Of a DNA stretch of 64,000 nt, positions 541 to 21,500 are shown one piece after another. Position 1 is the stretch's first letter, and each line of letters opens with the position of its first letter. The stretch comes from an uncultured bacterium (GTDB lineage Bacteria > Omnitrophota > Omnitrophia > Omnitrophales > Aquincolibacteriaceae), in assembly GCA_964482725.1 (NCBI GenBank), contig CAYZYT010000004.1, positions 104,063 through 168,062 on the forward strand, written 5' to 3'. The notes beneath the pieces are model-generated. The model was not told the DNA's origin, did no database searches, and was given only the letters and a program-made list of their open reading frames with translations. A program made the position numbers and the translations under genes.

Positions 541-3500
541 ATGAGGGAGAGCTCTATTTTAAAACGAGTGATTAGCCTGGTCGTCGTTGTTTGCTTCCTG
601 ACAACGAACGCGATGGCTATGCCTGGTCAAACCCTGGATGGAGGATGGGGGATGGCGGGTGTAGAAAAAGCAAAAGCCATCTCTGTTCCCTCTGGGCTCG
701 GAAGTGTCGTGGAAACATATGACGCCTCAAAACAGGATGGCGGAAGGCGGAGGGAGGATGGCAACAAACTAAAAACCGAAGCTCCGTCCACCATCCTCCA
801 TCCTTCCCCCAGATTTGTTATTTACATCCAAGACGCGCACGACTCGCTCGAGGCTCAGGAAAATATCGCCGCCATGGTCCGGCACTGCGTGAAGGAATAC
901 GGCGTCAAAACCGTCTACGAAGAAGGTTATGAAGGCCCGGTCCCGACCGACAAGCTCTTTGGATCGATCCAGGATCCGGTTCTTAAGGAAAAGATCTCTT
1001 ACTACCTGATGGACAAGCTCCGCATCGGCGGCGCGGAGTATGCGCATATCAATCGGGCGGCGGAGCCGCCCTCCCGGGAAACGGCTAACGATGAACGGTT
1101 AACGATGCGTTCAGCGTTCCCCGTTCCCCGTTCCCCGGAAAGCGATTTTCAGCTTGTAGGTGCCGATTCGATCAGCCTCCATCTTGAGAACATCCGCGCC
1201 TACGAGCAGGCGGCGAAGAACCGTACAGGCGTGACGCAAGACATTCAGCGTATCCGCAAAGAACTTCAGAAGCTGGCTGACAAGAATTTCCCGAAGGAAA
1301 TGAAAGAATGGTTGAAGCTCAAAGAACGGTATCAGAACGGACAGCTGCCGCTCGTTGAATACTTGGCAAGAACCATGAAAATCCGGGAGACGGATGGAGG
1401 ATGGAGGATGGCGAAGGGCGTAAAGCCAGGTTTGCCGCCATCCGCCATCCACCCTCCGGCCCCCAGCGTTGAAGCCCTCCTCTCCGGTGATCCGAAAGCC
1501 ATCAAACAGATCGATCTGATGAAATTGATCGGGGAGATCCAAGCTCTCGAGAACGAGATCGTTGAGGCAGGTCTCCCGGCAGAAAGGGACCGGAAAACGT
1601 ACGGTTACTTCGAGAGCGTCATGCTCCTTGAAAAACTCAACAAGATCGAGCTCAGCCACGAGGAATTCACGTTCCTCAAAGATTCGCTCGAAGGCCTCAA
1701 GACCGAAGATGTTGCTCGCTTTATCGCGAAGGAAACCGGTCACTCGCTCGTACTTTTCAAGTCTTGGGAAAATCTAATTGCCGATTCGATCCATTTCTAC
1801 GAGCTGGCGAAGAAGCGCGATCAGGCAATCGAGAAAATCCTGACCAAGACTACAGACGAGAGACTAGAGACCAGCGACAAAAAAAGTCTCCTGTCTCCAG
1901 TCTCCGGTCTCGAGTCTCCAAAAACCAAAGCGGATATCTCCGTTTTGGTTTTTGGGGGTTTCCACAAAGAAGCCATCAAGCGGATCCTGAAGGAAAAAGG
2001 CATCAGCTACGTCATTTTGTCACCCTCGATCGGAAATCCCAGCAAGCGGCATGAGGATTATTACCGAATGTTGATGGGCGGGGGGAGGCATTCGTTTGAA
2101 CGAATGCAGGGTATCGGAGGGAGGATGGAGGATGGAGTAAAACAGAAAACAAAAGGTTTCTCGCCCTCCGCCAACCGTGGCGAGAGCGTTTCTCGCCAAA
2201 GCACCCGCGCTCAATCCGTTTTCACGATGAACTACGGTTCCACCGTCGATCTTCTTTCCAAAACCGCCGCGCCATTCCGCAACGAACTTCGGCAGGATTT
2301 TATTTTAAAGATGGACCTCGCTATTCAGGGACGGTTCTTGAATGCCGGGGCTGAGGCCAAAGAACCGTCCCTGGTTGACAATTCTGCCAAACGCTCCGAA
2401 GTGCGGCAAATGTTGCAACAAGGCCCGGCAACCAAGCGCGACGGATTTATTTCCGCAGCCTGGAAAAAGCAGCGGGCGAAGCTCCTGCAAAGCGCCAATT
2501 ACCGGCTGCTGGAATACATGATTCACCAGACCGACCTTTCCGAGCGTCAGAAAAAAGGGTACCTCTATCTTTGGGAAACGATGATGCTTTTGATCCCGCT
2601 CACCAACGGAGTCAAGATCCCCGCAAGCGCTTGGGCGGTGTCTTTGGCGATCGCTCATCCTGCTTTTACGATCCTTCCGGCGATCATTTGGTGCACCTTG
2701 AGTTCGGTCCTTCGCGCCATTTTTGTGATACCGCCTTTCGCTTTTTACTATCGCTTCAGGGTCAGGGAGCTCGTGCTGGCGAACTTTCTTCCGTTCGGCG
2801 CCGCTTTTGTCGCCGTGCCGACGCAGGTGCTTGCGATCATGCGCGAAGAATACAAGCGGTTCGGGGACCTGTCTTTTAAACAGCTGGCGAAGCTTCACGA
2901 GACCGTGATCCGAAAAGTTCTTGAGGAAAATCCCAAGGATGAAGCGCTGCTCGCGCGGACTCCGGAGCTGACTTTCCGGCTGCTCGAATGGCGTTCCCGG
3001 AAGTACGGGGCCGATGCGGCAAAAGCGCTGCTGCTTCCGGCAAGGCTCACGGACCTTCTTCAAGAGGCTGACCCGAGCAAAGCTGCGTTGTCTGCACAAC
3101 GAGCAACGGCGTTAGCGAAAACGGTCATCTTCTTTCCTCCGTCAGGGTTTCACCAGGCCGGCTCAAGGGGGAGCGCTCTTTATGAAAATTCCGCGACCAT
3201 CAAGCGGCTTTACGAGAGAGTCAATCAAAAGGCGCGGGAAATTCTCGGGGATCCTGCCTTCGATATTTTTGACGTTTCCTTCAACCAGACCGAAGAGGAT
3301 TATTTGCGGGGTAACAATGCCGTCGCGGTGCATCTGGCCATTGCAACCCATCACATGGCCTTATGGGAAAGCCTGAAGGAAAAATATCCGGAAGCCGGCC
3401 GGCCCGGAGCGGTTCTTGGCGCGAGCCGGGGAGCGGATGCGGCCTATTATGCGAGCGGAGCGCTCGGCTTGGAAGATACCGTCGAGCTTGCGGTCCGGAA

Positions 3501-6500
3501 CATTCAGTTCTTGAAAAAAGCGTCCGAGCTTTCGGGTTCCCGGAGGATCGGAAGTGTTTCCCGTCTTTCCCGGGAAACATTGGAGGCCCTGCTAGCTCCG
3601 GAAGAAGGCGCGATCGCGGTTCAATATTCGAAAAATCTTTTCGCTGTTTCTTACAGGAAAGACTCTTTCGAAAAACTCGAACAAGATATCAAATCGGCGG
3701 GAGGCGTTCTCAGAAAAACGCTCCTCAGCGTGTCGAGCCATGATCCTCATCTTCTCACGCCGGAAACAAAGCCGCTCTTTGAAGAATACCAAGCGTTCCT
3801 CGAGGGATTTAAAGCGCGCATTCGTCTGCCCTCTCTGAAGCTTTTCTCGGCACTCGAGCCAGGGAAAGAGCTTAAGACGCCCGAAGACATCCTGAGCGAA
3901 GAGGTGCGTTACACCACCCAGGCGATTCCGCTGGACCGCTCTTTCGCCGACCTCTTGCAAGGAGCGGGACTGCAGAATGTTTTGGGGCTCGGCTATGAAA
4001 AGGATTATTTCATCCAGGCCCTTCAAAAGGAAGGGACGGTGTCCGGGGATGTTCGTGTGGCGCAAGCGGCCGACCTCGCGGATTATGGATCTTTTTGGAA
4101 TCTTTTCTCTCGGACAGAAAACGTAGGCGCAGCCGGTACCGTACGCTCCGAAGTGCGGGCCGCCAATGATCCGAAAGATATATTCGAAGGCGAGCCTCGC
4201 CTCTCCGTCGAGAGGCGGGATGGAAATGTTCTTTCAGGGGATGCCCGAACCCTCTCCGGCGGAAGGGTTTTGAGTTGGGATGAGGCCGTGCAGCACGCCC
4301 CGGAACTAGCCCGAAGGGTGGCTCTGAGCGGAGGCTTTGCCGGTTTTTTTACGCATCTTGGCAGAGCCTGGAATGATCCCTACAGGGAAATCGACCCAGC
4401 GATCGTCGAGCGTTATTTTGAAAACGTGCGAGCCTGGGGTCGCAAGGAAAATGGCGTCGTTTTCATTCTTGGCGGAGTTCCGGAAAAAATCGGCGAGCTT
4501 TTTACGCAGGCGGTGGTAATTCATATCCCCAATGTCCCTGACAACGATCCGATCCCGTTGATCGCCGGGAAGGAATCTTTTGATCCCATGGTTGAGCTGA
4601 TGAAAAAGATAGGTGTTCGCGGGATTCTTCCCTATGGCGGAGAGTATGCCCGCTTCGATGAACAAGGGCGGGTGTTACAAGGGTTTGATCCGGGGCTTGG
4701 TTGCGCAGGCGGACCGCTTTTTATTTTGAGCCGCTTTTTTGCTGTTCACGTATACCCTCAACTGCTTTTGGGAGGTTTGATCAATAAGCACTTGGGTGTG
4801 GCGGGTCTTCCACTTGAAACCGGAAAATATCTCACGGAACCCCGCTCGGAAATCCGGAATATCCCAGCAGGTTCGAAGCTTTCGCGACGGGAAGCTTTCC
4901 GGTGGGCGGCCTTATTCGATGAAGAGTTGAGTCAACGGGGACGCGCGCTCGTGTCGGCAGCGACGAAAGAAAAACTTTCCGTGAAGAGGGATACCCTTTT
5001 AGGGGGCGTGAATCGCTACAGCGCTCCGGAGAAAACCGCCATCCTTTCTTTTCGCGACAAGGATTCTCTGGGCCAGATCTATCTTCTTTTTCTGGATCGG
5101 GAAAACCGCCCCGCAGGCTATGGGTCTCTTTACAGCTCCGGAAAGGACAAGCCCGTCGTCGTATCCTTCCACATCTTTTCGGAATTCAGAGGCCGCGGGC
5201 TCGGCGAGGATTTCTGGAATGCGATCAAAAGCTTTCTCAAACAAAACGGCATGGGGTATGTCCCTGAGAAAGTTTACTTCCCGCCCGTTTCATGGTTTGC
5301 GGAGCGCGGTCTGGGGGACGATTTCAAAAATTCAGGCGTCCAGGAATTTCTGGTCAAAATGGGTTTTAAGCCTGTCGGAGTGAAGCCTTCCGCCACGCCC
5401 GGAGATGTGGCCTTTCTTTATAACTTGGGCGATGGGGAAAAGCCTCAGGCCGGAGTCGCGCGAAGTGAGGCCCGGTCTTCAAACGAAAGCCGGGAGCAGC
5501 TGACGGACGCAGGGATGGATCAATACGCCTTTTTTTACTGGAACAATAATAGTCAGTTCGATGCCATCCCGTACACGCTTGAAAAGCCGTTGTGGGAGTG
5601 GAGGGCCGGGGATATTTTTGTTGTCGAAAGCAGAGAAAAAACCGAGACCTATCTGCTTTTGGAGCAAACGGATTTTGGCGTTGTGACCTTTACTTCGCCT
5701 AGGGATTTTGGAGAGCCTGAAAGACGGAATATCCGTGAGTGGAGGATGGACTTTGGGCGAGATCTCGACCGGGGTGCCAGGATCACGGTCCGAAGGTATT
5801 ACGATGCCGGCAAGATCCCGACACTGCTCCATTTTGCGAATGAGGGACGTTTAGAGCCGGACACGCTCCGAGCTTATTACAAGCGGATCATTCTCGGGGT
5901 TTTGATTATCGCCGCGCCTCCGGTTTTGGGGCTGTATATGTTTGGCCTTTTAAAGCCGTGGTTCATCTCGATGGTTTTAGGAGTTCTGGCGCTGGCTCTT
6001 CTGGCGGGTCCCGTTCTTTTCCGATTTAAAGCGGGTAGTTTTATTTTCGATCTTAACCAAGCGCTTCCTTTCCGGATCCCGCCGCCGGGGACGAAACTTT
6101 CCAAGTTTGAATCCTGGAGAATGAATTTCCCGTCCTCTTCCGCCCGATCGGAAGCGCGTCTCTCGCGAGGGACAAGCCCGGAGCCTACGGCCGCCGGAGA
6201 ACAGGCTCTGGGAAAAGGTCCCCGGGAGGCGGAATGGCCCGAAGTCAGCCGCCAGTTCAGATCCCTGAATCCCTACAATATTCACAATATGCCGAGCGCC
6301 GTGCTTTCGGAATTGGCGTCGGAGATAGCGAACAAGTTAAACGTTTATGTTTTTGTCAGGAAAAATCACAGCGGCAAACGATGGATGAGTCAGGTTATGG
6401 AGATTTTGAGTCTGAGGATCGTTTATGACCAGGATATCGAAGTTTACGTGAAAGGTCGCCAGACTCCGGAAGTTTTAAACGCTACGTTGGACCTGGTTGA

Positions 6501-9500
6501 AAGGGCCATGCAGGATTGGAAAATGCTCGAGGAGTCGACGAAGGAAAATCCTCTTTATGACGCCTATCTTCGGGAGATCGACCAGATCGCGCAGGGATCT
6601 GCGACCCGTACTTTGAAAGCAGCTTATCGGACTTTTTCAGATGCGGCGATTAGCCGCGCGATCGATGCGGTGGATTATAACCACGGAGAGATCGATCCTG
6701 CGACGGGGGAAGCCAAACGGGATGAAGTCACGGATGCGGCCTTCCGCCGCTTGGACGCGCTCTATGAGGCCGTGCCTGGAGTGATCACGGTCCCGCGGAG
6801 TGAGTTCATGGGCTTCTTCGGAAAACGCCAGCCGGAATTCGCAGCGAATAAAGACAGGCTCATCAAACCCTTCTCGGCCTTGAGCGACGCAGAAAAAACC
6901 GCGCTTGTTCGGTGGAATGAAATCCGCCGTTCAGAAGCGCGGGATGTCCCGGAAGTGGCGCAGACGCAAGGGAGCCGGGAGGAGCAGGAAGACCGGTTCG
7001 TGAATGAAAAGATCTCGCTTGGTGCGGTTCCGCACGGGGAAGGTAGGCTTCTGGCCGTGATGGATGGACATGGCGGCGATGAGGTCTCGGAAATGTTGCG
7101 GGCGAATCTCGAGCGCGTTTTTAAAGACTCTATGCTCCGGAAAAACGGAGATGTCCAGCAAGCCTTACAAGAAGTTTTTGGTCGCTTACAAAAGATGGCT
7201 GCGGGATCGGAGTCGGGGTCCACGCTTTCGCTGGCCTATGTTCCGGAAGATGAAAAAGCCGCTTATGTCATGATCGTCGGCGATTCTCCGGTTTATGTCC
7301 GGAAGAACGGAAGGCTTATTTCCTTTCCGGAGCACAATCTTTCGAATCCCGTGGAAGTGATCACGCAGCAACAAAGGGCGTCGAGCGCCGGGAAAAAATT
7401 CCGCGTCGATTATGATTTTAAAAGGGAGAATGGAAAGGATCTGCTACGGAAAATCGGAACGACCGAGAATACCAGTCTTGCCATCACGCGCGCCTTCGGG
7501 AATAAATCCTTTCAAGGTCTTCTGATCGGCGAACCTTCCATTCTGAAGACCGATCTGAGCGACGCGCAGGGGCCGGTCGAGGTCCTTCTCGGCACGGATG
7601 GGATCTATGGTTTTCATGGGAATGACTCGAAGATTCAAAGAGACGCGAGGGCTGGCTATCTTCTTTCCAGAGGGACTGATGCGGCGGGGATCGTCCAGTC
7701 GGCCGGCAGCGCAAATGCTTCCGACAATGTAACGGTTCTCCTCTGGAAATTCGATCCCAACACCGTCCGCTCCGAGATGCGGCAGGACATCCATAGTCCT
7801 GCACGCACTGGTGCTGGGACCAGGGAAGTCCCAGCCGAGATGCGGCAGGACATCCATAGTCCTGCACGCACTGGTGCTGGGACCAAGGAAGTCCCAGCCG
7901 AGCTGCGCGGCGCGGAAAAGCCCGATGATCGGGAGTCCTGGACCCGGTTTTTGAATACCTATGCCCCGGCCCTGTCAGGGTTTGGCGGAACTTCCTTGGA
8001 GCAAGTCTGGAGGGAAATTTTCGAAAACACGCCGGAACATGCGCGAATCCTTGATCTGGCGACCGGGAACGGAGCGGTGGCGGGACTGGCCGCCGCCATG
8101 GCCGCGAAATTTTTTGAGGTTTGGGCCATCGATTCCGCCGAGCCCAAGGTCATTCCTCAGGGCGTCAACTTCCGAAAGGCGTCGATGGAGACATTTTCCG
8201 GGACGACGGATATGCCGGCCGATCTGGACCTTGTGACGGGACAATTTGCGATCGAATACGGAGAGACAGACCGGGTTCTCGGAGAAATTCATCGCGCCAT
8301 GAAAGCGGGAGGCAAAGGCGTTTTCATCATCCATCACAAAAACTCGTTCTGGGCGGAGCGGGCGAAATCCCTTTTGGAGCAGACAGACTGGGTGAAGAAG
8401 GCCGGGATCTTTGAAAGGATACGGCAATGGGTTCAAGATCCGTCCGAAGAGAAGCGAGGGCGATTCGAAGCGGTTCTGGACGTGCTCCGATCTGAAATAA
8501 GCAAACGAAGAGCCCAAAAAAGTGAAAATGACGTTCTGTCGAGTATTTTCCGTATCGCAAATACGACCTTTGAGGCGGTCCGGAATGGAAAACTTTCCGG
8601 ATTGGCCGAGCAGATCCAAGAAGTCGAGGAACAGTGGAACAATACGGTCTGGGTGAAGGAGCATATGATCCACGCCGCCTTTGACGGAGAGGCTATGGCC
8701 CGCTTCAAAACGGCGATTGAAGCGCGCGGTTTCCAGGTGGTAGGGATCGAGCCCTGGCAGATCCGGGGAACAATCCGGACGGAAGAGCAGGACCTGCTTG
8801 TCGGCTGGCGCGTCGAGATCCAAAAGCCCGGAATTTTATCTCCGGAAACCCGGCAGGAGAGGGATTGGATCAAGGAAGTCCAGTGGCCGGATCCGGAGGC
8901 GGCGCTTCGAGCGAATGATGGGCCATTCCATATCCCAAGCAAAGAGGATGAGGCGCTACAGATTTTTCTCGACTCCGGAAAGGGGACGCCGGACTATGCG
9001 TTAAACCAAAAAGCGGAATACCTCGGGAAATTATTAAATATCCTCGGAGCGTTGGACAAGACGCGTCTTTGGTGGGGAACCGGAAACGAAGAAAACTGGT
9101 CTGGCTGGGTGAAACATTCTTTCGCGAATTATTTGAACAACCTGCTGGCCCTCGTGGGGTTTTCTTTGCGAAACGAAGATCCTTTGTCGGAACAATCCGC
9201 CAAGGACCTCAAAGAGCAAATAGAATTTGCGGATGCGATATGGAGCGCCCGCAAGGAGCTCGCGGCATCTGTCGCCAACAATTTTAAGAACTACCCCGAA
9301 ATACTTCAGCCGGCTCCGGAGGGCAAAGGTCTCTCAAAGGAAAATACGTTTTCGAGGATCGAACTTAACTTTGCGTTCCCGCACAAAGTGTTTGTCGCAA
9401 GTCCCAATGCTGAGCGGAATCGCGCCATTTATGCGGAGGCCCTCCGCCGCATGGAAGGCCCCTTTCAGGAGATCCTCAAGCTGGCCCGGGAGCAACTTTC

Positions 9501-12500
9501 GGAGTATGAAAAAGGAACTGCCTTGCCCGCGGAACCTAAAAAAGATAAACGCTCCGAGGTTCGTGATCCCCAGGCATTCTTGGAAAACACCGGTCCGGTC
9601 GATGCCGAGCAGTTTGAACGGATGATCCTCGGAAAAAGATTCGATGACCTTGCTCCGGAACAGCGGGCTCGTTTTATCGAGTTTATTCGTTCCAGGAATC
9701 TGCATAATTTGGCGCCTTCTTTACAACGTTTGATCCTCGACCACGTTCAGCGTCACGCCGGTGAAGAGAACGACGAGATGAAAGCTCTCTGGAGCTGCAC
9801 GCTTCGCCTTGAACCGGGCAGCGCGGAGATCTATCGCCAAGAAGTTAGCATCCTCCGGAGTTCCGTGGCGCCGCTTGCAAAAAAAGTGTCTGAAGGGTAC
9901 TCGATCGTGACGGTCGAAGAATCCTCGAAAGGGATCCGGACTCAAACAAATCTCTCGAAAACAAAGACCGAAGATCCTTCTGCGGAGGTTTGGGAATTTC
10001 TGATCCCGGACCAAGTGGAGACCTCGGGCGGTGTTTATACGATCGCGAAACCGGGAACGGACGCCGTGGTGATCGGCTCCGGGGGTTCCGGAAGCGTGGT
10101 CATCCGGGCTCGAAAACAGGACGGTACGCCCGTGGCCATGAAGATCATTAAAGAAGACGGGAAGAGTATGCACCGCTTTTTCCTCGAATACCTGATGACG
10201 CTTCGCTTCAAAGGCGATCCGAACATTATTCAGGTCTATGATTCCGGCCGCTATGTGGTCCAGGCCCAGAGATTTTATTTTATTATGGAAGAATACGGAG
10301 AACGCACGCTTGCCGACGAGGTGCGGGCTCGTTCTAAGAAGCTTGGGGAAGGCGTGGAAATTTTCTCCCCGCCCGAAAGACGTAAGATCGCCAACGAGAT
10401 GATCGACATTCTGCAGACCTTGTACGCCGCGCGGATCCTGCACCGGGACGTCAAAGCTGACAATCTGTTCTATTCGGGAGGACGTTTGAAGCTGGGGGAT
10501 TTCGGGATCGCCCGCTGCTTGCCCCAGGAAAAAGATGAAATAAATTCCGATGCGCTTGAGGGAACACCGACGCATATCCCCGTCGAATCCTTTGCCGGTG
10601 CGAGCGGGTTCTACAACGATCTTTACGAGTTTGCGATGACCATGGCTTTTCTGGATCCCTCGACTCTCGCAGACGATTTCGGCGCGACGACCCGTGGTCA
10701 GATGCGGAGGGTGTCCGTTCCCACCAGCATGTTCACGAAGAACCTCGCCGGCTTGGCCCAAACGGATGCGGCGTACAAAAAATTCTACGAGATGCGGGAA
10801 TTCAGCAAAAAAACCCTGGCCGGAACGCTTGTCAGGCTTGAACGGAGCCAAGATCCATTTACCCAGCTTGTCGTACGACCGATCCTTGACCGGGAACATT
10901 ACCAGGACTCTCCGCGCAATGCACAGGAGCTGGATCAACTGGCCGCCTCTGTTTTTTTTATCGAAAAGACAACAGATCTGATCCGCGAAGGGCAGCCGGC
11001 AGAAGCGCGGAGGTATGTCGCAGCGTTGCTTGGAGAGGGGAGCACGTTCGCTACTTATCCGATCGTTCGGGAAAAAGTCGAAGAACTCCGTCTTGCCGCG
11101 GAAGCAAGTTCAGTTCGTTCCGAGATGAGGAACGGCAAGACCTCAACAAAGCCAGCCATGATCGAGCGGAAGGCCGAGGGAAAAGGAAGGATCTGGATCG
11201 CCGAACTGAAATATCCGAGAAAAATGCTGTCTCTGGGGGTGCGTTATGCCGGGAAAACGCTCAAGCTCTATCCTTATGATGAGGACTGGAAGAAAGGGAC
11301 GCTGATCTTTGACGAAGAAGAGCCGATCGCTGTTTATGTCTCCCAAGAGGATCTTTTTTCCGTGCTTGAAGAGGAGACAACCACCGACGCGAAAGGACGT
11401 TTTATCCGTGAGGGTTTGCGTTATAACCTCGGTGAAAATAAGGCCCATCTAAAGATCAGCCTCCGGCCTTTTGAAACGCCGGACTGGAAGACCGGTGTGA
11501 GGATTTTTGAAGGTCAGGCCGAGATCGCTTATCACGACGCGAAAAGGAACCGCACGGTCAACCTGATCTCCATCGCGCCCTTTAGACGTTCGGGGGCTCG
11601 GGAGGTCGGGACAGCGGACCTCCGGGACGTGCCTCACGTGCACCGGAAAGATCTCTGGAAGACGGGTTTGTATGGGAGCGAAGAGTTAAAGCAGATCCTA
11701 AAAGCCATGCTTGAGTCGGAAGACATTGTTTTCGATGAGCGGAGATATAAGGTTAGCCTTTATGCGCTTCCGGCCGAAGAGCTTGTTGCGCTGATGGATT
11801 ATCTTCGCGCTCAAAGGATCCGCGTTAACGGATATTTATATCGGGAACTTCTTCAAGAACATCAGGAAGACATGGCCCGGTATATCGAAAAGACGAGAGC
11901 CGCGGGTAGCGATCTGAAATATCTCGGTGCCCCTGCCTACCAGTTGTATGCCGATCTTTTGCCAGCCGCCGAAGAAGTGAACCCGAGCCTTTATGTTGAT
12001 AGCCAGCCGCCCCGATATCACGACGACGTCTTCAGCTCTCTAAAAAAAGAATACAGGGCACAGCTTCAAGAGATCCGGCGGCAGGGAGACAAGATCGGAC
12101 TGGCGGTTCACGGAGTGCGCGAGTGGAAATGGCGCGACATGTCCGGGCAAAGCCGGGACCGGGAGATCGGCATGGATGACGGCAAAATGAGATTTTTGAA
12201 CGTGCTCTTGGAGGGCAGGATCCGGAATTTTACGATGCCCTTCTCTTTTTCCAAGCTGAAGGTGGATGTCGGTTATCTGGATACGGAACACGACACGAAT
12301 TTCAGCGACCGGGGAGATGCCGGGACCTATGGCCCTTACTATATCCTTCTGGACCCGAGGTGGAGGCATGACGCGCAGGGAGGCATCGGCGAAGAGCACC
12401 ATAAATATTATCTTGTGCCGAATGACTCGATGCGAAAGTTCCTGACCGGCGGGCTCGAACAGGCTCTTGCGGGCGGGCTGATCGATCCGGAGCGGTTGGA

Positions 12501-15500
12501 GGTTTTGAAAAGCAAGATCATGACCTATCGCGAGTATGCCGACATCCTCTCCGGGCGCGGCGCAGCGAGCCGGGCGGAATTGCGGGAAGAGAAGGCTCCG
12601 AACCGTGAACGAAAAATGGAAAAAATCCGGCAGCGTCCCTCGAGGCGTTCAGACGGGAAAGAAAGTAAATGGGATGTCTTTGACCGGTTCGTGCAGAAGG
12701 TGAACCTTCTTAATTTTGAAGAGGTCAAGCAAACGGAAGAGCTTAAGAGCTTGAGCAAAAAGCGGGAGCTTCTTGTAAGTTTTGGGATCCCGGAGGCTGC
12801 GGAAGTCGAAGCAAAATATCTCATAGGCGCGATCGGCAAGCTATTCAAGAAAATGCAAGCCGAAGGGGCGGGCCGCCAGCAACCTATTATTTGGACGGAT
12901 TTTTTAAGCTACGGCGGGCAGGGGCGATATCTGACGGCTTACAAGGATGAAAATCCCGAAGGCGGTTGGATCGTCAAGGTCGCGGCCAGCGAAGAAAGCA
13001 GCCGGTACATGGATCTCTATTCTCTGGAGGGGACGCGTCTGGCTCTAGAGCGCCTCGGCGGCGGTCTCGCAGCCAGCACGATGATCATCGACGGGAGAAA
13101 GAACGGAAAGGATTTCTTTTTCCGGTCGGGAAAGCGTGCGATGTATGAAAGCGTCGCGATCGTTCAGGAAAAGTTGTTACCCCTCGTGGAATATTTGAAG
13201 CAGGTCGGTCGGCGCGGCGCCTCGGACCGGGAAGTTTCTGAGGCGATCGGGTACATGGAAAAATACAAACAGCTTGCGATCGCGATGTACCGGCGGGGCA
13301 TTGTGGATGCGGACAATTTTAACGTGGTCGGCAACTATGGTATCCGGCCCTCGGACAAAAGCCTCGCTATTTTTGATCTCGGCGATCTTACCGACAGCTT
13401 AAGGAGCGCACAATCCTTTGTCGCGGAACTGGACAGCTTTAATGAGGATAGGGCGGATGATTCCGCCGAGATCGACGGGGTCCTGCTGGATCCGAAAGTC
13501 TCTCGGGCGTTTACGGACAACCCCTTCCGGACAGAGGATTTTGTTCTTCATGGCAAGGATCTGTTCGGTTCGGAATTCGATCCCAAAAAACATGGCATGA
13601 CCTTTCCGTTATCGGAAGACGAGGTCCGTCGCATGTTCCTGGGGAGTTCGATCCGGGAGCCCTCTCAAGACCGTCGCTCAGAAATTCGAATTTCTGGAGC
13701 GAACAAAAAGCTAGCGCGAAAGGAAGACCGTCGCGCTGAACTGCGCGATGCAGAGACCTGGAGAGGGCGCGGGGCCGAATCGCCGCTCCGGCTGGAGAAG
13801 GTGACATTATTAAATGAACTGGCAGCAAAAGTCCCCGAAGGGACGAAACGTACTTTCAGAGCGCTGGCCAATGCTTCCGGCGGCCGTTACTCCTATTCCG
13901 CGATCCGCGGCATAGCTGTGTATTATGCGATCACTCCGGAAGAGGGAGGTTTTGAGCCGGAAGAAATATGGACAAGAAAAGAGTGGGTTGAAAATCTCCC
14001 GAAGGGAGCCCGCGCGCTGAGTAGGGGGCAAAGGCCTACTGCCGAAAACATTTCAGCCGCGTTAAAGGAAAAATTCGGCATCGTTAGATCGCCTGCCCAG
14101 ATCCGCGAAGCCCTATCTTTTCATAAGATCACTTATCGAGAAGTCGAAATGGTTCGCGATCTCAGCATTGATCCAAGAAACGATGACGCATGGAAGGAGT
14201 TTTTTAAAAGGCATGTCCAAACTCTAGGGCCCGGGCTTCACGCTGTTTCGGAGCTCGCAGAAAAACTTTCGTCAGTCGCGGCGAATAAAAAACTCGAGGC
14301 GGGGTTTATCGGGATCGGCGCAAGCCAGATCGAAAGGATCATGATCTTACACCGTCTTTCTTACGAAGAACTGGGTCTGAAGAAGGTCAGGCCTGCTCCG
14401 AAAACGCAGGACGAATGGATTTTGCTGGTCCGAGAACTGGTCGACAAAATCCCGGCGGGAGTAAAAAAGACGCTTGGCAATGCAGCTCAGGCGTCCGGGG
14501 GTCTATTCACTTACAGCCGGCTCTATCACGCCATGAGCGACCATGATATTTCGTACAACGAGGTCGGACTTGAAACGCCTCGGAGACAACCTCGCCGGTC
14601 GCGCGCCGACTGGCTGGCTTACTTCAAGGAATTGGCGGCGGCTATTCCGGAAGGTTTCCGTAAGGTGCTCGGCAACGCCGCGGAATTTTCCGAAGGCGCT
14701 GTGACGTTTTCTCAACTTCTCAAGGCCAAAGTGAATCATGGATTCTCTTACGAAGAGATCGGGCTGGAGCGTTTTTACCAGATCCTGGGCCTGGTTCCGG
14801 AATCGGTGGATTGGCAGATCCAGACAAGTTATGAAAAAGGCCGCAGCGGAAAAGGGCGATGGGAAACGGTGAGGACTAAGGCCGTCGGACCTCGCATACT
14901 CGGTCCCGACGAAGAAGCTTCCCGCCAGGAACGAATGGACCACCTCGAAAAAACGATCGTCCTTTTAGGCTCTGACGCCGGGAAAATGATCGATCAGGTG
15001 CTGGATGCCTTGGCTCAGGGCGCGAGCATGGACAATCTTTCCGATCTATCGGAAAAAAGCGACGTTGATCCGCAGGCGCTTCGAGAAATGATGGGTCGTC
15101 TCCGGAAAATCTACCACCGGCTTGTTGCCGGCCAACCGATCCCTCAGGAGTGGATCGGTGAAAGTGAAACCCAAGATTACCCCACAGGTGCACCTACGGG
15201 GTTGTCTCAGGGAGTTCTTTCGAGGTCCGAAGTGCGGAATGGGCAGGCGTTGAAAATGTGGGGAGCCTGGAAAACGAAAGAAGAAGCGTTGATCGATCTG
15301 GAGCTTAAAAAATCGCAGGCGATGCTCGCGATGCATCCGTGGAGCTTCCTCGCCTTGCTTAACGGGAAAGAGAATCCGAGGCTTTCGGGTGAGATCGGAG
15401 AGCTTTTGAACCGTTGTTTTGAGATGCTGGCGTGGGCGGTTGGGCAATTTCACGGCCAGCCGGTCGAGGTGCTTCAAATGGAAGAGGCCCGGAAGCTGGA

Positions 15501-18500
15501 AAGCGCGGCCCGGCAGTACCGTGTTCTTCTTGAGGTCTTGCACGGGCTCGACAAAGGGAAGCTCCCGTTCGACAAAATTGTCAGCCAGAACGACTTTGAA
15601 ACCGTCCGGCAATACACTTTTTCAGACAACGGAACCCTGTATCCGGTCCGCGTCATCTGCCGGTGGGAATCCGCCGAAGCAAAAGAGGCAAGGCTTGCCG
15701 TGAATGTCCTTTTGCCGCTGGGGTCCTCTTCTGAGGAGGACATCGCCCGGCACAAGAAGGGGCCCGGGCTTCCGCCGCTTTCCGACAGGCAAATGATCTC
15801 TCTGCGGATCGATTGGAGCAATAGGACCGAACGGGCGGAAATGGATATTTCCGGAGGTTCAAACGAAAAACTTCCTTTTGCGCGTAGGCATTGGGTCCTG
15901 AACGACTTGTCCCGACAGGCGACTTTCAGGAACTTTGTTCTTGGGATGGACCAAAAGCTCGCGAAGCTTTCCTCGGCTTCTGCGCCCGTTCCATCTGAAA
16001 AACATCGTTCTGAGATGAGGGAAGTCTTTAAGCTTGGGGGCGAGTTCACGCGCGAGACGATGGAGCGGATGATCCGCGAGCTGGCCGGACAACAGAAAGT
16101 CGATTTTGAGACGGAGGAGGGCGACAGGTTCACCGTCCATTACACTTTTCAGGATCAAGGCTATCAACAGGGCTGGTACCAGCCTTTCCGCGCCGAAGGT
16201 GAACGTTTCCGGCTCCTACTGACCCGGCATGTTGGCGCGAGCGAAGATCAGGTTGCTTTTGCGAATGCCAAACTTGTCGAACGGGACGGGAAGAAAGTCG
16301 CTGTCATGGATCATGGGTTCGGGAAAGAAGAGATCCTGAAGGGAAAGAGCATTTTAATGGATCGGGAAGTCGTCGCTTTGCAGACCGAGGACCGGTATGT
16401 TGGGTTGTTCAAAGGGATCGGGACGGCGATGATGCAACTCGCATGCGGCGTGGCACGAGCCCATGGGGCGGATGTGCTTTACGCCGAATCCATTGCTAGC
16501 AAGGAATTGGAATCCTTTTATGTTCAGGCCGGCGGTGTCATGGAAGATTATCAGGCGGTTTTTGAGGTTATGGATTCCTCCGAGGACGGGAACGCTGCTT
16601 CTACTTATTTCAGCACGAGACAACGCGCAAAATTCGATTTAAAAAGCCTTCCTCAGCTGGAACGTTTCCAGATTGAGAAGATTAGTTCCGACGCAAAACT
16701 TTCCGGGCACCGCGTACTCGCCTTATCCGACGAGGTGCAGAAGCATAATCCAAGCCCTGCGGATCTCCCAAGCAATTTTGAGATGAATCGTTCGGAAGTG
16801 CGGGGGAAGAATATTAATCGGAAAATTGTTGTTGCGATGACGCCGGAAGCGGAAAAACGTGCCCGGCGACTCCAGCAAGCGCTTAAACTTTTGGCGACGA
16901 CGTATCCTGAAGGTGTGACTTATGAGCTTGTTGCCAAAACCATGAACGAGCTTCCCAGGGATCCGGAACCTTCTCTTTCGTGGTATGCGCTCGCGAAATG
17001 GACCGAAGCCCATCCGGACCTTCCTTCGGTCGTTTTATTGAGAAAAATGCAGCGGGCTTCTTCGGCGCTCCAGGACGCGCTGAGCGATCTTGTAAAGCGA
17101 CCCGCAAAACAGAATTGGACCCCAGATCTTAAAAAGCTCCGGCACGACCTTCTTGGGAAAGCCCTGGAGTTGAACCTCCACGGAGCTTTTGTTTTTCATC
17201 CCTACACGGACGAGCGATACGTTTGGCGCGTCCTGGGATTCATGGAAGATGGGTGGAAAGCGGTATTTGAGGACATTCAAAGCAAAGAGGGCCAACTCTT
17301 GATCACGCTGCGTCTTGAAAAAGAAGGCGAGGAAGTTTTCCTGAGAACCTTTGCTGTAGGAAAAGAGAAACGGGCTTTGCTGGGCGTGCTCGGCAAAAAA
17401 GGTCAGCCGACAAAACAAGCCCTGGATATTCTGCCGCTGGAAGACAAGACCATTTATGGAGAAGAGAAAAAAGCCTACCGCATTCTTTCGGAACTTGTCG
17501 GCAGGCCGGAAGGTTACGCCTGGCAGGCGGATGAAGATAAATTAAACGATTTGATCGGGGAGGAGCTCGGCGAAGTTTCTCCACGAGGTGTTTCGAGCTT
17601 TTCGCCAGCCAAGTATTTCGCCTACCGGTGGTTTCTTTTGGGAACGCGTGAAGCGGGATGGAGCGCCAGGATCATGGAGGCGGGGATCCGGAGCGCCGCG
17701 CCTGTTTTTAAAGTTAAATTTTACAGAGAGGACGGGAAAAAAGAAGCTTTCGAAAAGGAATATCAACTAGGGCCTAAGCGGAAAGATCTGAAATATACCG
17801 GCCCCCGGAAAAACACGGCGCCTCTTTCCATTTGGGACATCGTGCCATTGAATGATGCGGGAGTTTTTGCGCCGGAACGACCCGCCCAAGAAAAAATAAC
17901 GGAAGCGCTCGCGGCCCTTCTGGCGGAAGGTGCGGTGGTCTCGCAGGCATTACTTGCCGAAAAAGCGGATGTTGGGGAGAACACCGTTGTCCGCATCAAA
18001 AAAGAAAACGCGGTTCTCGGGAAAAAGATCGATGAAGCCGTAGCGACCTCGCTTTATAAGAAGATCGAAGCTTTTCTCAAAGATCATCCCGGGGCCAAGC
18101 AAAAAGATATTGCGGAAGCGATCGGCGTGAGCCCGAGTGCGATCGTCTACTATAAGAGCACGAATGAAGAAATCCGCAAATTGATCGAAGTGAATCAGCC
18201 GGTTCAGGATAAAAAAGCTCTCTCGCCAGGAAAGGGGTCTCAGACGAAGGAAACAAGATCTGCCCCAAAGACAGAAGCACCGCGGAAAGAAAAAAAGATC
18301 CCTCAGCCCAGAGTTTCCCCCGCGCAAGACAAGCCCGCCATTCCCGAGGAGAAACCTGAAGAGGGAAAAGCGGCAAAACCCACGGAACTCAAGGGTGTCA
18401 CCGCCGTTCCCGAGATCCAAACGTACGCCATGCTTGATGAGGGGATTGTGACGCTTTTTGAAAGACGGTACGCTCCGATTTTGGAAGAACTTTCGGACCA

Positions 18501-21500
18501 GGCGGTGGATGAACCTTCGGAAACGGTCGAAAAAAGCGAAGCGCTTCTCGGGCGGCTGGATCTTGTTTTGAAAAATTTTGAAAAGTCTTCTCCGACGCTG
18601 TTGGGGAGGCTGAAAAATATACGGGGCAAATTGGAGAGCATTCAGTCTCTGGCCCGCGTGAACGATGATGCGGGTTTTGATGGCTCCGAGGGCGAATCGC
18701 GCGACCCGTCCCGTTCGGAAGTTCGGACCGCGCCGGATCTAACAATAAAGGCAGAGGACAGAACGCGCTTCCTGAAAAAGAATCGCGGGAAAGACCTGAA
18801 CGAGATGGTGAAAAGCATGATCCGGGACGCAACACGGTACTCCGAAGAAGGCGCGGCGCGGGTTCTTTATGCGGAGCCGAAGGAGCCTGTTTTTATTCCT
18901 GAAAAATATGATGCTTATCTTGGCTACAGTGCTTTGGATACGGCGCTTTGGGAAATTTTCGGGAATGCGCTTAAATATTCTCCCAAAGAAAAACCGATCC
19001 GGATCGCGCTTGAAAGGGAACCCGGGCACATTCTCTTGAAGGTCTCAGATTCAGGCATTGGGATATCCGCTGAAGAAATGAAACATGCCGGGACAGTAGG
19101 TTGGCGCGGAGAGCGGGCCCAGGCCTATTTCAAACTTGGCGCCGGAAGAGGGATCGCTCAGACAAAAGAGATCATCGAAAGGATCTACGGCGGTTCGGTA
19201 ACGATTGAAAGCCCCGGGGAAAACCAAGGGACGATCGTTACCATAACGCTCCCTCTGAGCGATTCAGCGGGACGGGCAAAGTTGGATTCAGACAAGCTCC
19301 GCTACAAAGACACAGCGGACTTTATGGCCCGACACAGCGTGATAGAGAAGGGCGTGGTCTATACGGTTCGGGATATTCTCGACCGGGAGTTGCCATCCGC
19401 GGTTTATGCGCTTGAAAAGGTCCAGGAATTACGCCGGCGAATGGACGCATCCGGTAAGCGAGAAACGCCGCTTATCCTTTGGCAGAATATGAGCTTGGGG
19501 CAGTTCTTTCCTTATTTTAGCGAAACCGTTAAAACGGAGCTGGGAGTCTTGGAGCTGTCCGAAGATGTTTCGAAATGGCAAGCCCAGATCGCGGATCTTC
19601 AGCCGGGCAAAAGCCGCTTCATTCTGATCAAACAAAAAATAGCTTCGAGCTTCCCGGGGGAGAATAAAGATTACGCGAATTATCCGGAAGAGGAGTGGGA
19701 CCCGTCGGTGGAGACTTGGGGGGCGAAGGAAATAGAGAGGATCGCCAAGACTTTGCGCGCTCCCGTTGTGATGGTGGATCATACGGGGAAGGAATTCTCA
19801 AACGGACAAAGGCTCTTGGCGGAGCACGCGCAGCGAAGCGGAATTAAAACGCATTGGATGAATAGCCGCTTGAGCGAGGACCTTGGGAAGGATAAAGATC
19901 TTTGGAGCTCGGACAGTCTCCTCGTGCTGCTCAATGCGAATGCAGATCCAGAGAGAAAGAAATCCTTATTCGATGATAGTGAGAATTTTTCAAAAACCCG
20001 GCGGATCCTCTCGGGGATCATTAACGGAGAAAAGATAAACTTCGTCGACGCACTTATGGAGGCCTATGCGGCCGCTACGCTCCAGGCTCAAGAAGCTCGT
20101 CGCTCGGAAATGCGTTTGCCCGCGAGCGGGGGGAGAAAATCCTCCGGAGCGGTGACTTTTCTCAAGAAAAAGGAAGTCCCGGGAGTCGTTACGGCAGTTT
20201 CTTTCGAAGGAAAACCGTATGCGCTGTCCGCGATCGGGACGATGCTGCAGATCCGGGATCAATTCAATTTTGGCATTCTTCTTTTCAAGCTGATTCCCGA
20301 ACGCCAGCGCAATGCCTTTATCGCTTCTTTGCCGCGGGAGACTCAGGAAAGGGTTCAAGCCTACCGTCGCGCACCCGCGGCCGGCGCTACACGGCTTATG
20401 GTCGAGGTCCTCAAAAACGAGGATTTTACGGCGCAGATCAAAGCCAATGCGGCGGTCCAGATTGGGATCGGGCAGGACCTAGCTACGAGTGTCGTGAGGT
20501 TCGAGGTCGAACAAGTCTCAGATGAAAAAGCCGTTTTCAGGATCTTTCTCGGGGAAGTGCCGGTCGAATATGACGTCAGCCTCGGGAAAACCTACATGGT
20601 GGCCCGGGAGAAGGTTTTGGAGGAGCCGCTCGATGCCGCCGAACTTTTTACTGTGTCGTCCGATGTCCTTTCCGCGGGCAAGCACTTTTCTTTCCGGATG
20701 TTCCTGAAAGATAATGCGACCTGGATCCATATGGTTGATTATAAGTCTACGAACGGAACGGTTCTTTGGGCGGAGGTTTATCCGAAGAAAGTGGATTATC
20801 CGAGGCGCAAACAGGACCGGGCGATCTGCGAGAAAGAAATTCGAAAAATGCTGGAGGACTTTTCGGACAAAATGCGGGCCGATGGCCTCGCGACGGACCC
20901 GGAGACGAAAGATGTGAAGTACCAGGAGGCCTTAAACGAGGCGGCCTCGCTCTATATCGAGAGTTCCAAGTTTCACGAACTGGAAGAGCTGAGGAAAAAA
21001 TTGATCGAGAACTACTTTTTTTCCAATACCAGCTCTTCTCTCGGGGCTTCGACGAGGAGCCAGTACGCCCTTGAAACGCTGGAATCTTTACTGGAGGATG
21101 ACCGGATCTCGGTTTGGGAGCCCATCCTCGAGGCGGCTGTTAAATACGTCCGGTACTTTGTTCATCTGGTCCGTCTTCTCAAAACCGAAAAGCTCAAGCT
21201 CGCCCCGTCTAAGCTCCAGTACGAGATGGTGCGCGCTCTTTCCAAAATAAACGGGAAGGAAACAGAGGTCCCGGAAGCGTCCAAATTCAACAAAGAGATC
21301 TTCGGCAAAACCCTCCGCATCGACACCTTGCCGAGGTCTGAAGCCCGGACTTCCCGAACCCCGGATCAGACCCCGGCTCTAAACCCCGGGTCTGCGGCGG
21401 GTGCGAAGCGGGAAGAATCTGGACAAAGTGTTCGCAACGCCCTGGTCGTGCGGGACCGGATCGAGAAACTCACGGGCGCCGGGACGATCCTGATGAGTCG

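Follow-up and report, generated by a model that had tools for sequence, protein, structure and literature searches.

Does a very large open reading frame (ORF) in an uncultured bacterium encode one chain or a series of separate proteins, and what is the role of a pentapeptide that recurs along its length? The window that we analyzed is the whole 64,000-nucleotide stretch of DNA from a member of the Omnitrophota (assembly GCA_964482725.1, contig CAYZYT010000004.1, positions 104,063 to 168,062 of the forward strand). A 7,147-amino acid (aa) ORF at 541-21984 on the + strand encodes a polyprotein-like member of an Omnitrophota family. We found that flexible linkers with the pentapeptide separate nearly all of the domain modules, both in this protein and in hundreds of its relatives, and that there is selection at the level of the peptide, with dialects that are specific to individual proteins. 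On balance, we lean toward the explanation that the giant protein is an exported modular polyprotein that is processed at the linker pentapeptide, with its N-terminal domain (N-domain) as the candidate protease.

The pentapeptide was present in the window protein far more often than expected by chance. A sequence-only reading of this DNA had reported 16 in-frame copies of RSE.R, and translation of 541-21981 confirmed these copies and their variants (six RSEVR, four RSEMR, four RSEAR, and two RSEIR). The start positions that had been listed were also correct, apart from one given as 15232 that is actually at 15223, as were the domain-sized spacings of 206-853 aa between motifs. From the composition of the protein itself, 0.24 copies of RSExR would be expected, or approximately 0.05 if x is V, M, A, or I. 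Nine RSExR matches in total were found in the five alternative frames and the 42 kb outside the ORF, and none of the V/M/A/I type was in a real ORF. The RSEMR at 24622, inside the gene for a protein with MSP, BACON, and Ig-like domains, is out of frame and is a chance match. There was no match to R[SAPT]E[VLMAI]R in the 38 other ORFs of the window (12,327 aa). Residues flanking the motif were not conserved, and the information was confined to the five motif positions.

The sites, and sequences related to them, are given below. Names beginning with P or L are our handles for related proteins and loci.

2392-2406, + strand: motif 1, RSEVR at aa 618, straight after the N-domain
4144-4158, + strand: motif 2, RSEVR at aa 1202
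4843-4857, + strand: motif 3, RSEIR at aa 1435
5461-5475, + strand: motif 4, RSEAR at aa 1641, edge of a cassette shared with P0059, whose motif is offset by 9 aa in the linker
6145-6159, + strand: motif 5, RSEAR at aa 1869
6928-6942, + strand: motif 6, RSEAR at aa 2130, opens the PP2C cassette and is aligned with RSEIR of P0061
7768-7782, + strand: motif 7, RSEMR at aa 2410, closes the PP2C cassette and is aligned with RSEMR of P0061
7772-7907, + strand: 63-bp tandem duplication (2.2 copies, 97% identity) in the linker immediately after motif 7
9550-9564, + strand: motif 8, RSEVR at aa 3004
11116-11130, + strand: motif 9, RSEMR at aa 3526, aligned with RSEIR of P0061
11587-11601, + strand: apparently decayed site, RSGAR at aa 3683, aligned with an intact RSEIR border of P0061
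12571-12585, + strand: variant RAELR at aa 4011, a true cassette border, aligned with RSEMR of P0090
13675-13689, + strand: motif 10, RSEIR at aa 4379, aligned with RSEVR of P0090
13732-13746, + strand: variant RAELR at aa 4398, 19 aa past motif 10 and possibly a doubled site
15223-15237, + strand: motif 11, RSEVR at aa 4895
16006-16020, + strand: motif 12, RSEMR at aa 5156
16789-16803, + strand: motif 13, RSEVR at aa 5417
18712-18726, + strand: motif 14, RSEVR at aa 6058, 19 aa upstream of the HisKA-HATPase module
20101-20115, + strand: motif 15, RSEMR at aa 6521, edge of a cassette shared with L006 (38% identity)
21334-21348, + strand: motif 16, RSEAR at aa 6932, in the linker preceding the C-terminal domain

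Three RAELR sequences (aa 4011, 4398, and 7127) had been omitted from the sequence-only reading, including the true border at 4011. The one at aa 7127 (21919-21933), 20 aa before the C-terminus, is probably not a processing site because it is part of the confidently predicted last helix of the C-terminal domain and is kept in only a few such domains. The duplicated linker after motif 7 contains PAEMR (7831-7845) and PAELR (7894-7908), in which the first Arg of the motif is replaced by Pro. The only tandem repeats found were a 7-bp array and this 63-bp array.

The motifs are in disorder-prone linkers and not in the cores of folded domains. We modeled both ends of the window protein with AlphaFold2 (AF2). 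In a model of aa 1-622 made with 38 homologs, there was a confident domain at aa ~50-520, and the region of RSEVR-618 had a predicted local distance difference test (pLDDT) score below 50. In a model of aa 6914-7147, RSEAR-6932 was within a 44-residue stretch with pLDDT of 41-46, and a confident domain began at aa 6958. Motif flanks in the window protein were, on average, at the 81st percentile of a disorder-propensity scale. Across 743 family sites, the fraction of order-promoting residues dropped from 0.33 to 0.17-0.23 near the motif and recovered within ~20 residues, and aromatic residues were depleted at most of the flanking positions examined (-12 to +16). Immediately C-terminal to the last Arg, Pro was depleted 5-fold and Ser, Thr, and Asn were enriched, which is compatible with a scissile bond at this position. 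Only two of approximately 800 family motifs were inside the N-domain. The first motif of a protein was a median of 107 aa after the GGFH sequence of the N-domain (described below) and thus past that domain, and the last was a median of 194 aa from the C-terminus, near the start of a C-terminal domain of ~190 aa.

The motifs mark the borders of cassettes that are shuffled between proteins. Where the window protein and its relatives have modules in common, homology spans from motif to motif, and the order of the shared cassettes varies between proteins. For example, the PP2C cassette (aa 2130-2414) matches aa 2994-3273 of P0061, and aa 6520-6937 matches aa 3450-3872 of the L006 protein, with a motif at both ends in both proteins. 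Homology of aa 4011-4383 to aa 594-951 of P0090 begins exactly at RAELR-4011, and we conclude that this variant is a real border because it is aligned with an RSEMR of P0090. The RSGAR at aa 3683 resembles a site that has degenerated and left two ancestral cassettes fused, and this would account for the length of the segment from aa 3526 to 4011. In P0059, which forms a pair with the window protein at 64% identity, motifs were 9-12 aa away from their positions in the window protein in a linker that was otherwise homologous, indicating that presence of the motif is selected and its exact position is not. Based on these results, we conclude that motifs are gained, lost, and moved within linkers and that their presence there is what is conserved.

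The cassettes themselves are unrelated to each other. We detected no paralogy among the 17 inter-motif segments of the window protein, which rules out module repetition as the source of the motif. Nine of these segments had no Pfam match. A scan of segments 1-9 (aa 1-3525) against NCBIfam gave no family-level name, and homology searches with later segments gave a single weak Omnitrophota match for aa 3526-4894 and nothing for aa 6521-7147; word-based searches of this kind miss most cassettes.

The pentapeptide is characteristic of a family found in Omnitrophota. When GTDB genomes were scanned for matches to the first 1,434 aa, six loci were found, and all of those that are named are from Omnitrophota metagenome-assembled genomes (MAGs). 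Homology to the window protein was limited to the first ~600 aa (50-62% identity) and ended at RSExR. Past the shared region, the related ORFs had different sequence that was again punctuated by RSExR (7 in 1,825 aa, 9 in 3,893 aa, and 11 in 4,037 aa), and the Pfam content of these loci was unlike that of the window protein (HD, GNAT, HTH, HEAT, and a YrbL-like kinase). With the first 1,200 aa as the query, an exhaustive HMMER search found 3,179 cluster representatives at E ≤ 1e-3, of which 290 were at E ≤ 1e-30. The best 150 representatives were 165-7,652 aa long, mostly at least 1,100 aa. Across the homology searches, every match with a named taxon was from Omnitrophota. Two distinct family loci, L003 and L007, both truncated, are in one MAG (binchicken_co18_506), indicating that a genome can hold several paralogs. 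Cassettes elsewhere in the family (P0011, P0018, P0020, P0045, and L006/L008) include Peptidase_M23, cytidylate kinase, HD/HD-GYP-type, HEAT, and HTH domains and more methyltransferases. Peptidases of the M23 type hydrolyze peptidoglycan, as would suit a role outside the cytoplasm that is directed at prey.

We counted motifs in 125 new representatives (394,125 aa) and found 664 copies of RSExR versus 11 expected. RSE[VLMAI]R occurred 600 times versus 3.6 expected (168-fold), and RAE[VLMAI]R occurred 161 times versus 4.6 expected. There were 19 copies of RPE[VLMAI]R and 13 of the RTE type. Overall, position 2 was Ser in ~78% of family sites, Ala in ~20%, and Pro or Thr in a few. Sequences with Lys for either Arg, or with Asp or Gln for Glu, were barely above chance. 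The motif was absent from the 46 non-family ORFs of the related loci (18,095 aa), which together with the other window ORFs amount to approximately 30,000 aa of neighboring non-family sequence without it. The proposal in the sequence-only reading of a recurrent linker or processing site in a polyprotein therefore held for the location in linkers, the coincidence with borders, and the enrichment in homologous giant genes (~170-fold); that the sites are proteolyzed is what we infer.

Selection acts on the peptide and not on a DNA motif, as had been suggested from the varied codons. Sites use CGN and AGG for Arg, TCN and AGT for Ser, and GAA and GAG for Glu, and the amino acid constraints are strict. 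There was also some residual codon bias. Among the sites of the window gene and of its close relatives (L003-L008), the first Arg was encoded by CGY in 43 of 49 sites (background ~36%), with CGG almost never used, and Ser was encoded by TCN in 42 of 44. Codons for Glu and the last Arg were as in the background, and the CGY/TCN bias was not seen in the distant member P0167 (L011).

Individual proteins have their own dialects of the motif. P0173 has 15 RAEVR and one RSELR, P0083 has 11 RAExR, P0167 has eight RPEAR and one RSEAR, and P0128 has 11 RSELR. Among the cassettes within each of these proteins, there was no paralogy except for one weakly similar pair in P0167. Homogenization at the level of DNA was rejected as the source of the P0167 dialect because its eight RPEAR sites differ at almost every synonymous position. 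For the 77 proteins with at least five sites, the probability that two sites of one protein have the same residue was 0.36 at position 4 (null 0.19, z = 25) and 0.73 at position 2 (null 0.60, z = 13). The preservation of such dialects at the level of the peptide argues for a dedicated reader that co-evolves with them and not for a generic protease or DNA homogenization. The relationship between dialect and N-domain identity was weak (Mantel r = 0.09, p = 0.02), and similarity rose only among close N-domain relatives. We also considered and rejected a single N-domain clade for the RAExR-type proteins, which have several independent origins.

The N-domain is predicted to have a fold that is found in known endopeptidases. 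The confident domain in the AF2 model is an alpha/beta domain with a core of central parallel beta-sheet and flanking helices, as modeled, and its best structural matches were members of the TIKI / TraB-PrgY / ChaN / erythromycin-esterase superfamily. The hallmarks of this superfamily are a parallel beta-sheet core and a 2His/2Glu site, and its members include the Wnt protease Tiki and the Ras/Rap1 site-specific endopeptidase RRSP (PMC6254334). A Foldseek comparison of the N-domain to the PDB was not significant, a profile of the N-domain family had no match among PDB sequences, and Pfam had no match to the N-domain of the window protein. Among 39 family members, Pfam matched PF04187 (ChaN, Tiki superfamily) in one (E = 8.5e-5) and DUF5694 in two (E = 0.005). 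The relevant features are the following:

688-2100, + strand: N-domain, aa ~50-520, TIKI/EreA/ChaN/TraB-like fold, candidate endopeptidase
832-840, + strand: codons of D98-A99-H100 (IQDAHD motif), putative catalytic first half, invariant in 117 of 118 members, at the C-terminal end of predicted strand 91-98
922-924, + strand: codon of E128, putative catalytic Glu, 28 residues past H100, invariant
1963-1965, + strand: codon of H475 (GGFH motif), putative second catalytic His, invariant in 118 of 118 members, after predicted strand 465-472

D98, H100, E128, and H475 were invariant in 117-118 of 118 members, each following a predicted strand, and E166, H169, R172, and R426 were likewise invariant. 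The counterpart of D98-x-H100 in RRSP is E3900-x-H3902, and the spacing between H100 and E128 is the same as that between H85 and E113 of Bcr135 and between H3902 and E3930 of RRSP (PMC6254334). The residue pattern thus appears to reproduce the 2His/2Glu constellation at the ends of core strands, with Asp in place of Glu as the first acidic residue, and the model has a large helical insertion at aa ~211-450. The sequence-only reading had not seen this domain and had proposed an unknown protease or autoprocessing activity. The N-domain is now a concrete candidate because it is the only universally conserved, catalytic-looking domain of the family. One family member, P0023 (L009, 10001-11296), is a complete 431-aa protein that consists of a signal peptide and the N-domain with all of the putative catalytic residues and has no cassette tail. 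Its gene, on a 462-kb contig, has an unrelated fasciclin gene after it; an ORF of more than 1,700 aa that is ~5 kb upstream does not have the motif.

The other end of the protein is also conserved:

21412-21981, + strand: C-terminal domain, aa 6958-7147, Rossmannoid alpha/beta fold, ending in VVAWAA at the C-terminus

A hidden Markov model of this domain matched 69 family sequences among the 125 representatives and further hits that were scanned, and in 94 of the 125 representatives the C-terminus is formed by a hydrophobic stretch followed by [AS]A. The fold is HAD-like; we compared the domain to HAD enzymes, which combine a Rossmannoid fold with a DxDx(T/V) nucleophile after strand 1, and found no HAD catalytic motif and no conserved catalytic set in the domain. 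It could be a signal for sorting, anchoring, or tail recognition.

Between the conserved ends, the window protein contains enzyme and regulator cassettes. The GNAT, PP2C, Ser/Thr kinase, and GHKL (HATPase_c) domains that had been named in the sequence-only reading were all recovered by domain scans, which added the acyltransferase, HPr, S-adenosylmethionine (SAM) methyltransferase, and HisKA domains:

541-21984, + strand: giant ORF, in the order signal peptide, N-domain, cassettes, C-terminal domain
541-621, + strand: Sec-type signal peptide or signal anchor, MRESSILKRVISLVVVVCFLTTNAMA with the boundary before M, from reading of the sequence and a Kyte-Doolittle hydrophobicity scan
3178-3747, + strand: FabD-like acyltransferase cassette domain (domain scans)
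5056-5253, + strand: GNAT acetyltransferase cassette domain (Pfam scan)
6247-6501, + strand: HPr-like cassette domain (domain scans)
6958-7608, + strand: PP2C phosphatase cassette domain (Pfam scan)
8014-8367, + strand: class I SAM methyltransferase cassette domain, a weak match (Pfam scan)
10069-10587, + strand: Hanks-type Ser/Thr kinase cassette domain (domain scans)
18769-19260, + strand: HisKA and HATPase_c (histidine-kinase core) cassette domain (domain scans)

A hydrophobic N-terminus was present in 91 of 111 family representatives. Two pairs of strongly hydrophobic, transmembrane-like helices are inside two cassettes of the window protein (aa 700-718 and 749-767, 2638-2841; aa 1783-1801 and 1808-1826, 5887-6018), and the second pair is kept in P0059. 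Certain released modules may be membrane proteins.

The giant gene stands alone. It is preceded by an AT-rich, non-coding leader of ~300 bp (240-540), before which a divergently oriented gene ends near 230. Downstream are genes with housekeeping functions (YchF, PepA, RsmB, MutY, and aconitase). Exact matches to this YchF were limited to two short Logan contigs, so the genome is not represented elsewhere. The 1,333-aa protein with MSP, BACON, and Ig-like domains is encoded after YchF (23757-27758) and could be a surface or adhesion protein. No dedicated protease, secretion, or immunity genes were conserved as neighbors in the window, L006, L008, L009, or L011.

We believe that the pentapeptide is probably cleaved. 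That the N-domain does the cutting is plausible, and we hold it more tentatively. In the pathway that we favor, the precursor would be exported by means of its Sec-type signal peptide. It consists of an invariant N-terminal domain, a putative hydrolase (TIKI/erythromycin-esterase/ChaN fold), then ~17-18 unrelated enzyme or regulator cassettes, then the C-terminal alpha/beta domain, and the junctions are short disordered linkers with R-[S>A>P,T]-E-[V/L/M/A/I]-R. A dedicated, sequence-specific endopeptidase, for which the protein's own N-terminal domain is the candidate, would read the pentapeptide and split the precursor into cassettes during or after export, and the freed proteins would then work as a mixture, probably inside or on prey or host cells. 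The cofactors that the kinase, phosphatase, acetyltransferase, and methyltransferase cassettes require are cytoplasmic, so these enzymes may well act within a different cell, and this is consistent with the predatory or parasitic lifestyle proposed for Omnitrophota (PMC10066038). The most specific version of this proposal is that each precursor, exported by the Sec route and up to ~7,700 aa long, is the substrate of its own TIKI-fold N-domain, which cuts at co-evolving R-[S/A/P]-E-hydrophobic-R dialects, freeing up to ~20 enzymes into prey or host, with cassettes swapped at the motif borders. We regard this full version as possible, though less likely than not.

Other explanations fit parts of the data. 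The motifs might be cut by a separate protease, encoded elsewhere in the Omnitrophota genome or supplied by the prey or host, with the N-domain serving as an esterase or in binding or attack of an envelope. All of the evidence for processing in linkers applies equally to such a protease; in addition, a standalone N-domain protein without a tail exists, the dialects track N-domain similarity only weakly, and the TIKI superfamily also holds esterases and a heme-binding protein. We nevertheless consider a separate protease unlikely: the family genes in the window, L006, L008, L009, and L011 have no conserved protease gene beside them, protein-specific dialects with varied codons are hard to square with one generic host or housekeeping protease, and the N-domain has invariant active-site residues and, in the giant members, is always fused to motif-bearing tails. 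It is also conceivable that nothing is cut and that the pentapeptide is a docking motif for a chaperone, translocon, secretion or injection apparatus, or prey protein, with the giant working as one chain. A strict, short linear motif with unconserved flanks in disordered linkers would be in keeping with docking, and dialects would suit co-evolution with a binding partner. However, the motifs are exactly at the borders of independently shuffled, unrelated enzyme cassettes and beside both of the conserved terminal domains, an arrangement expected of release sites and not of binding sites. The depletion of Pro directly after the last Arg and the putative hydrolase active site in the sole conserved partner-like domain in cis also argue against docking, which we find rather improbable.

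Two further explanations concern the DNA and the serine. The 15-bp sequence could be a microhomology at which cassettes cross over between paralogous giant genes, with the peptide as a by-product; in keeping with this, cassette homology often starts and stops exactly at the motif, and there is the CGY and TCN bias in the window gene and its close relatives. This is contradicted by the use of AGG as well as CGN, AGT as well as TCN, and GAA as well as GAG, by the synonymous differences among the eight RPEAR sites of P0167, by the intolerance of Lys, Asp, and Gln, and by the finding that the motif moves within a conserved linker and that frame is always kept. Microhomology may assist shuffling; it cannot explain the pattern, and as the primary function it is very improbable. 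The sequence-only reading had also raised the possibility that the embedded kinase, PP2C, or GHKL modules act on the Ser as a recurrent phospho-acceptor. Ser is indeed the most common residue at position 2, and the window protein holds both a kinase and a PP2C. This proposal is largely refuted: Ala takes the place of Ser in about a fifth of sites, a few others have Pro or Thr there, whole proteins use RAEVR, RAELR, or RPEAR and are essentially without Ser sites (P0173, P0083, and P0167), so the Ser hydroxyl is dispensable, and the motif is kept in L005, L006, and L008, which had no Ser/Thr-kinase or PP2C Pfam domain in the parts scanned. Phosphorylation could modulate some sites at most, and we give almost no weight to it as the function of the motif. 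The pattern also does not fit a Tat signal, a furin-type R-x-[KR]-R site, or 14-3-3 motifs.

The favored explanation, processing of an exported polyprotein, has parallels in several known systems. The closest in organization are the MARTX toxins (e.g., Vibrio RtxA1), which are also very large secreted proteins with conserved ends around variable, shuffled, and unrelated effector modules. Their modules are connected by unstructured linkers, where an embedded protease sets the modules free (PMC6315884, PMC2900308). The giant protein likewise has variable modules joined by disordered linkers, which contain the putative processing sites, and the MARTX effector RRSP has the TIKI fold predicted for the N-domain. 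However, there is no homology between MARTX toxins and the giant protein, none of the 17 segments has RTX/hemolysin-type or glycine-rich repeats, and there was no match to Peptidase C80 in the Pfam scans or in NCBIfam (segments 1-9, aa 1-3525). The giant protein has an N-terminal Sec-type signal and not a C-terminal signal for type I secretion, and no rtx transport genes are nearby. MARTX processing sites are loosely defined, with cleavage after Leu, whereas a strict pentapeptide is conserved in the giant proteins, which are encoded by Omnitrophota and whose targets are likely prokaryotic. With the TIKI / TraB-PrgY / ChaN / erythromycin-esterase proteins (Tiki, RRSP, EreA-C, and Bcr135/136), the N-domain shares D/E-x-H, a Glu at +28, and a C-terminal His at strand ends, and sequence-specific endopeptidases are among them. 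It differs in that sequence similarity is near the limit of detection, there is a large helical insertion, and Asp replaces the first Glu; fusion to a multi-cassette tail, or a role in self-processing, was not found described for this superfamily in the searchable literature.

Viral polyproteins (cut by an embedded protease such as potyvirus NIa, picornavirus 3C, or flavivirus NS3) also have a short, strict peptide at every junction between domains, with unconserved flanks, although they are not homologous to the giant proteins. Each virus has its own site dialect that co-varies with its protease, and each protein of the giant family has a dialect as well. Unlike these polyproteins, the giant gene is cellular and chromosomal and is flanked by housekeeping genes, its family's cassettes are a shuffled repertoire and not a fixed replication set, and the candidate protease has a different fold.

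Polymorphic toxins and polyvalent proteins, as defined by the Aravind group, are similar to the giant family in having a conserved head and variable, quickly exchanged enzymatic cassettes. They function in conflict between organisms, and release by an embedded peptidase is often predicted, also for giant proteins of the Omnitrophota type. Polymorphic toxins usually have one variable toxin tip at the C-terminus and adjacent immunity genes. In contrast, members of the giant family have up to ~20 serial cassettes with a repeated junction motif, and there are no recognizable immunity genes nearby.

Within the same phylum, the family resembles the Omnitrophota giants ('Archaeovorins', Dockerin-type), huge ORFs in which HEAT, HATPase_c, GNAT, phosphatase, and further domains of cytoplasmic type abound and whose products have been proposed to be cleaved after translation (West-Roberts et al. 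2023, bioRxiv 10.1101/2023.11.21.568195; Seymour et al. 2023, PMC10066038). The published giants have ORFs above 20-30 kaa with many transmembrane helices and C39/S8 peptidase domains (10.1101/2023.11.21.568195; PMC10066038). In contrast, the family described here is smaller (1-7.7 kaa) and has a defined N-domain, a defined C-terminal domain, and an explicit junction motif. Literature searches with the motif strings and for Omnitrophota combined with polyprotein, Tiki, or autoprocessing found no relevant description, and the sole mention of RSELR and RSEVR was in PL7 alginate lyases, where they form a catalytic motif that is unrelated.

Giant ORFs characterize the Omnitrophota, and the question of whether their products function uncut or as separate pieces can now be tested directly. 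The main study of these proteins stated that no information about cleavage points exists and that this blocks structural analysis (10.1101/2023.11.21.568195). Our analysis supplies a junction motif, a family definition (N-domain, cassettes, and C-terminal domain), and a candidate protease. The motif permits giant proteins to be split in silico into modules for structure prediction, for annotation, and for cataloguing of a large, rapidly shuffled set of putative effector enzymes. Should the N-domain prove to be the protease, the TIKI superfamily would be extended to self-processing of polyproteins, and the readable dialects would be a natural system for the evolution of specificity and potentially a source of orthogonal site-specific proteases. 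For the organisms themselves, there would be a new self-processing pair of protease and substrate, together with the first set of cleavage rules for giant proteins in an uncultured predatory or parasitic phylum.

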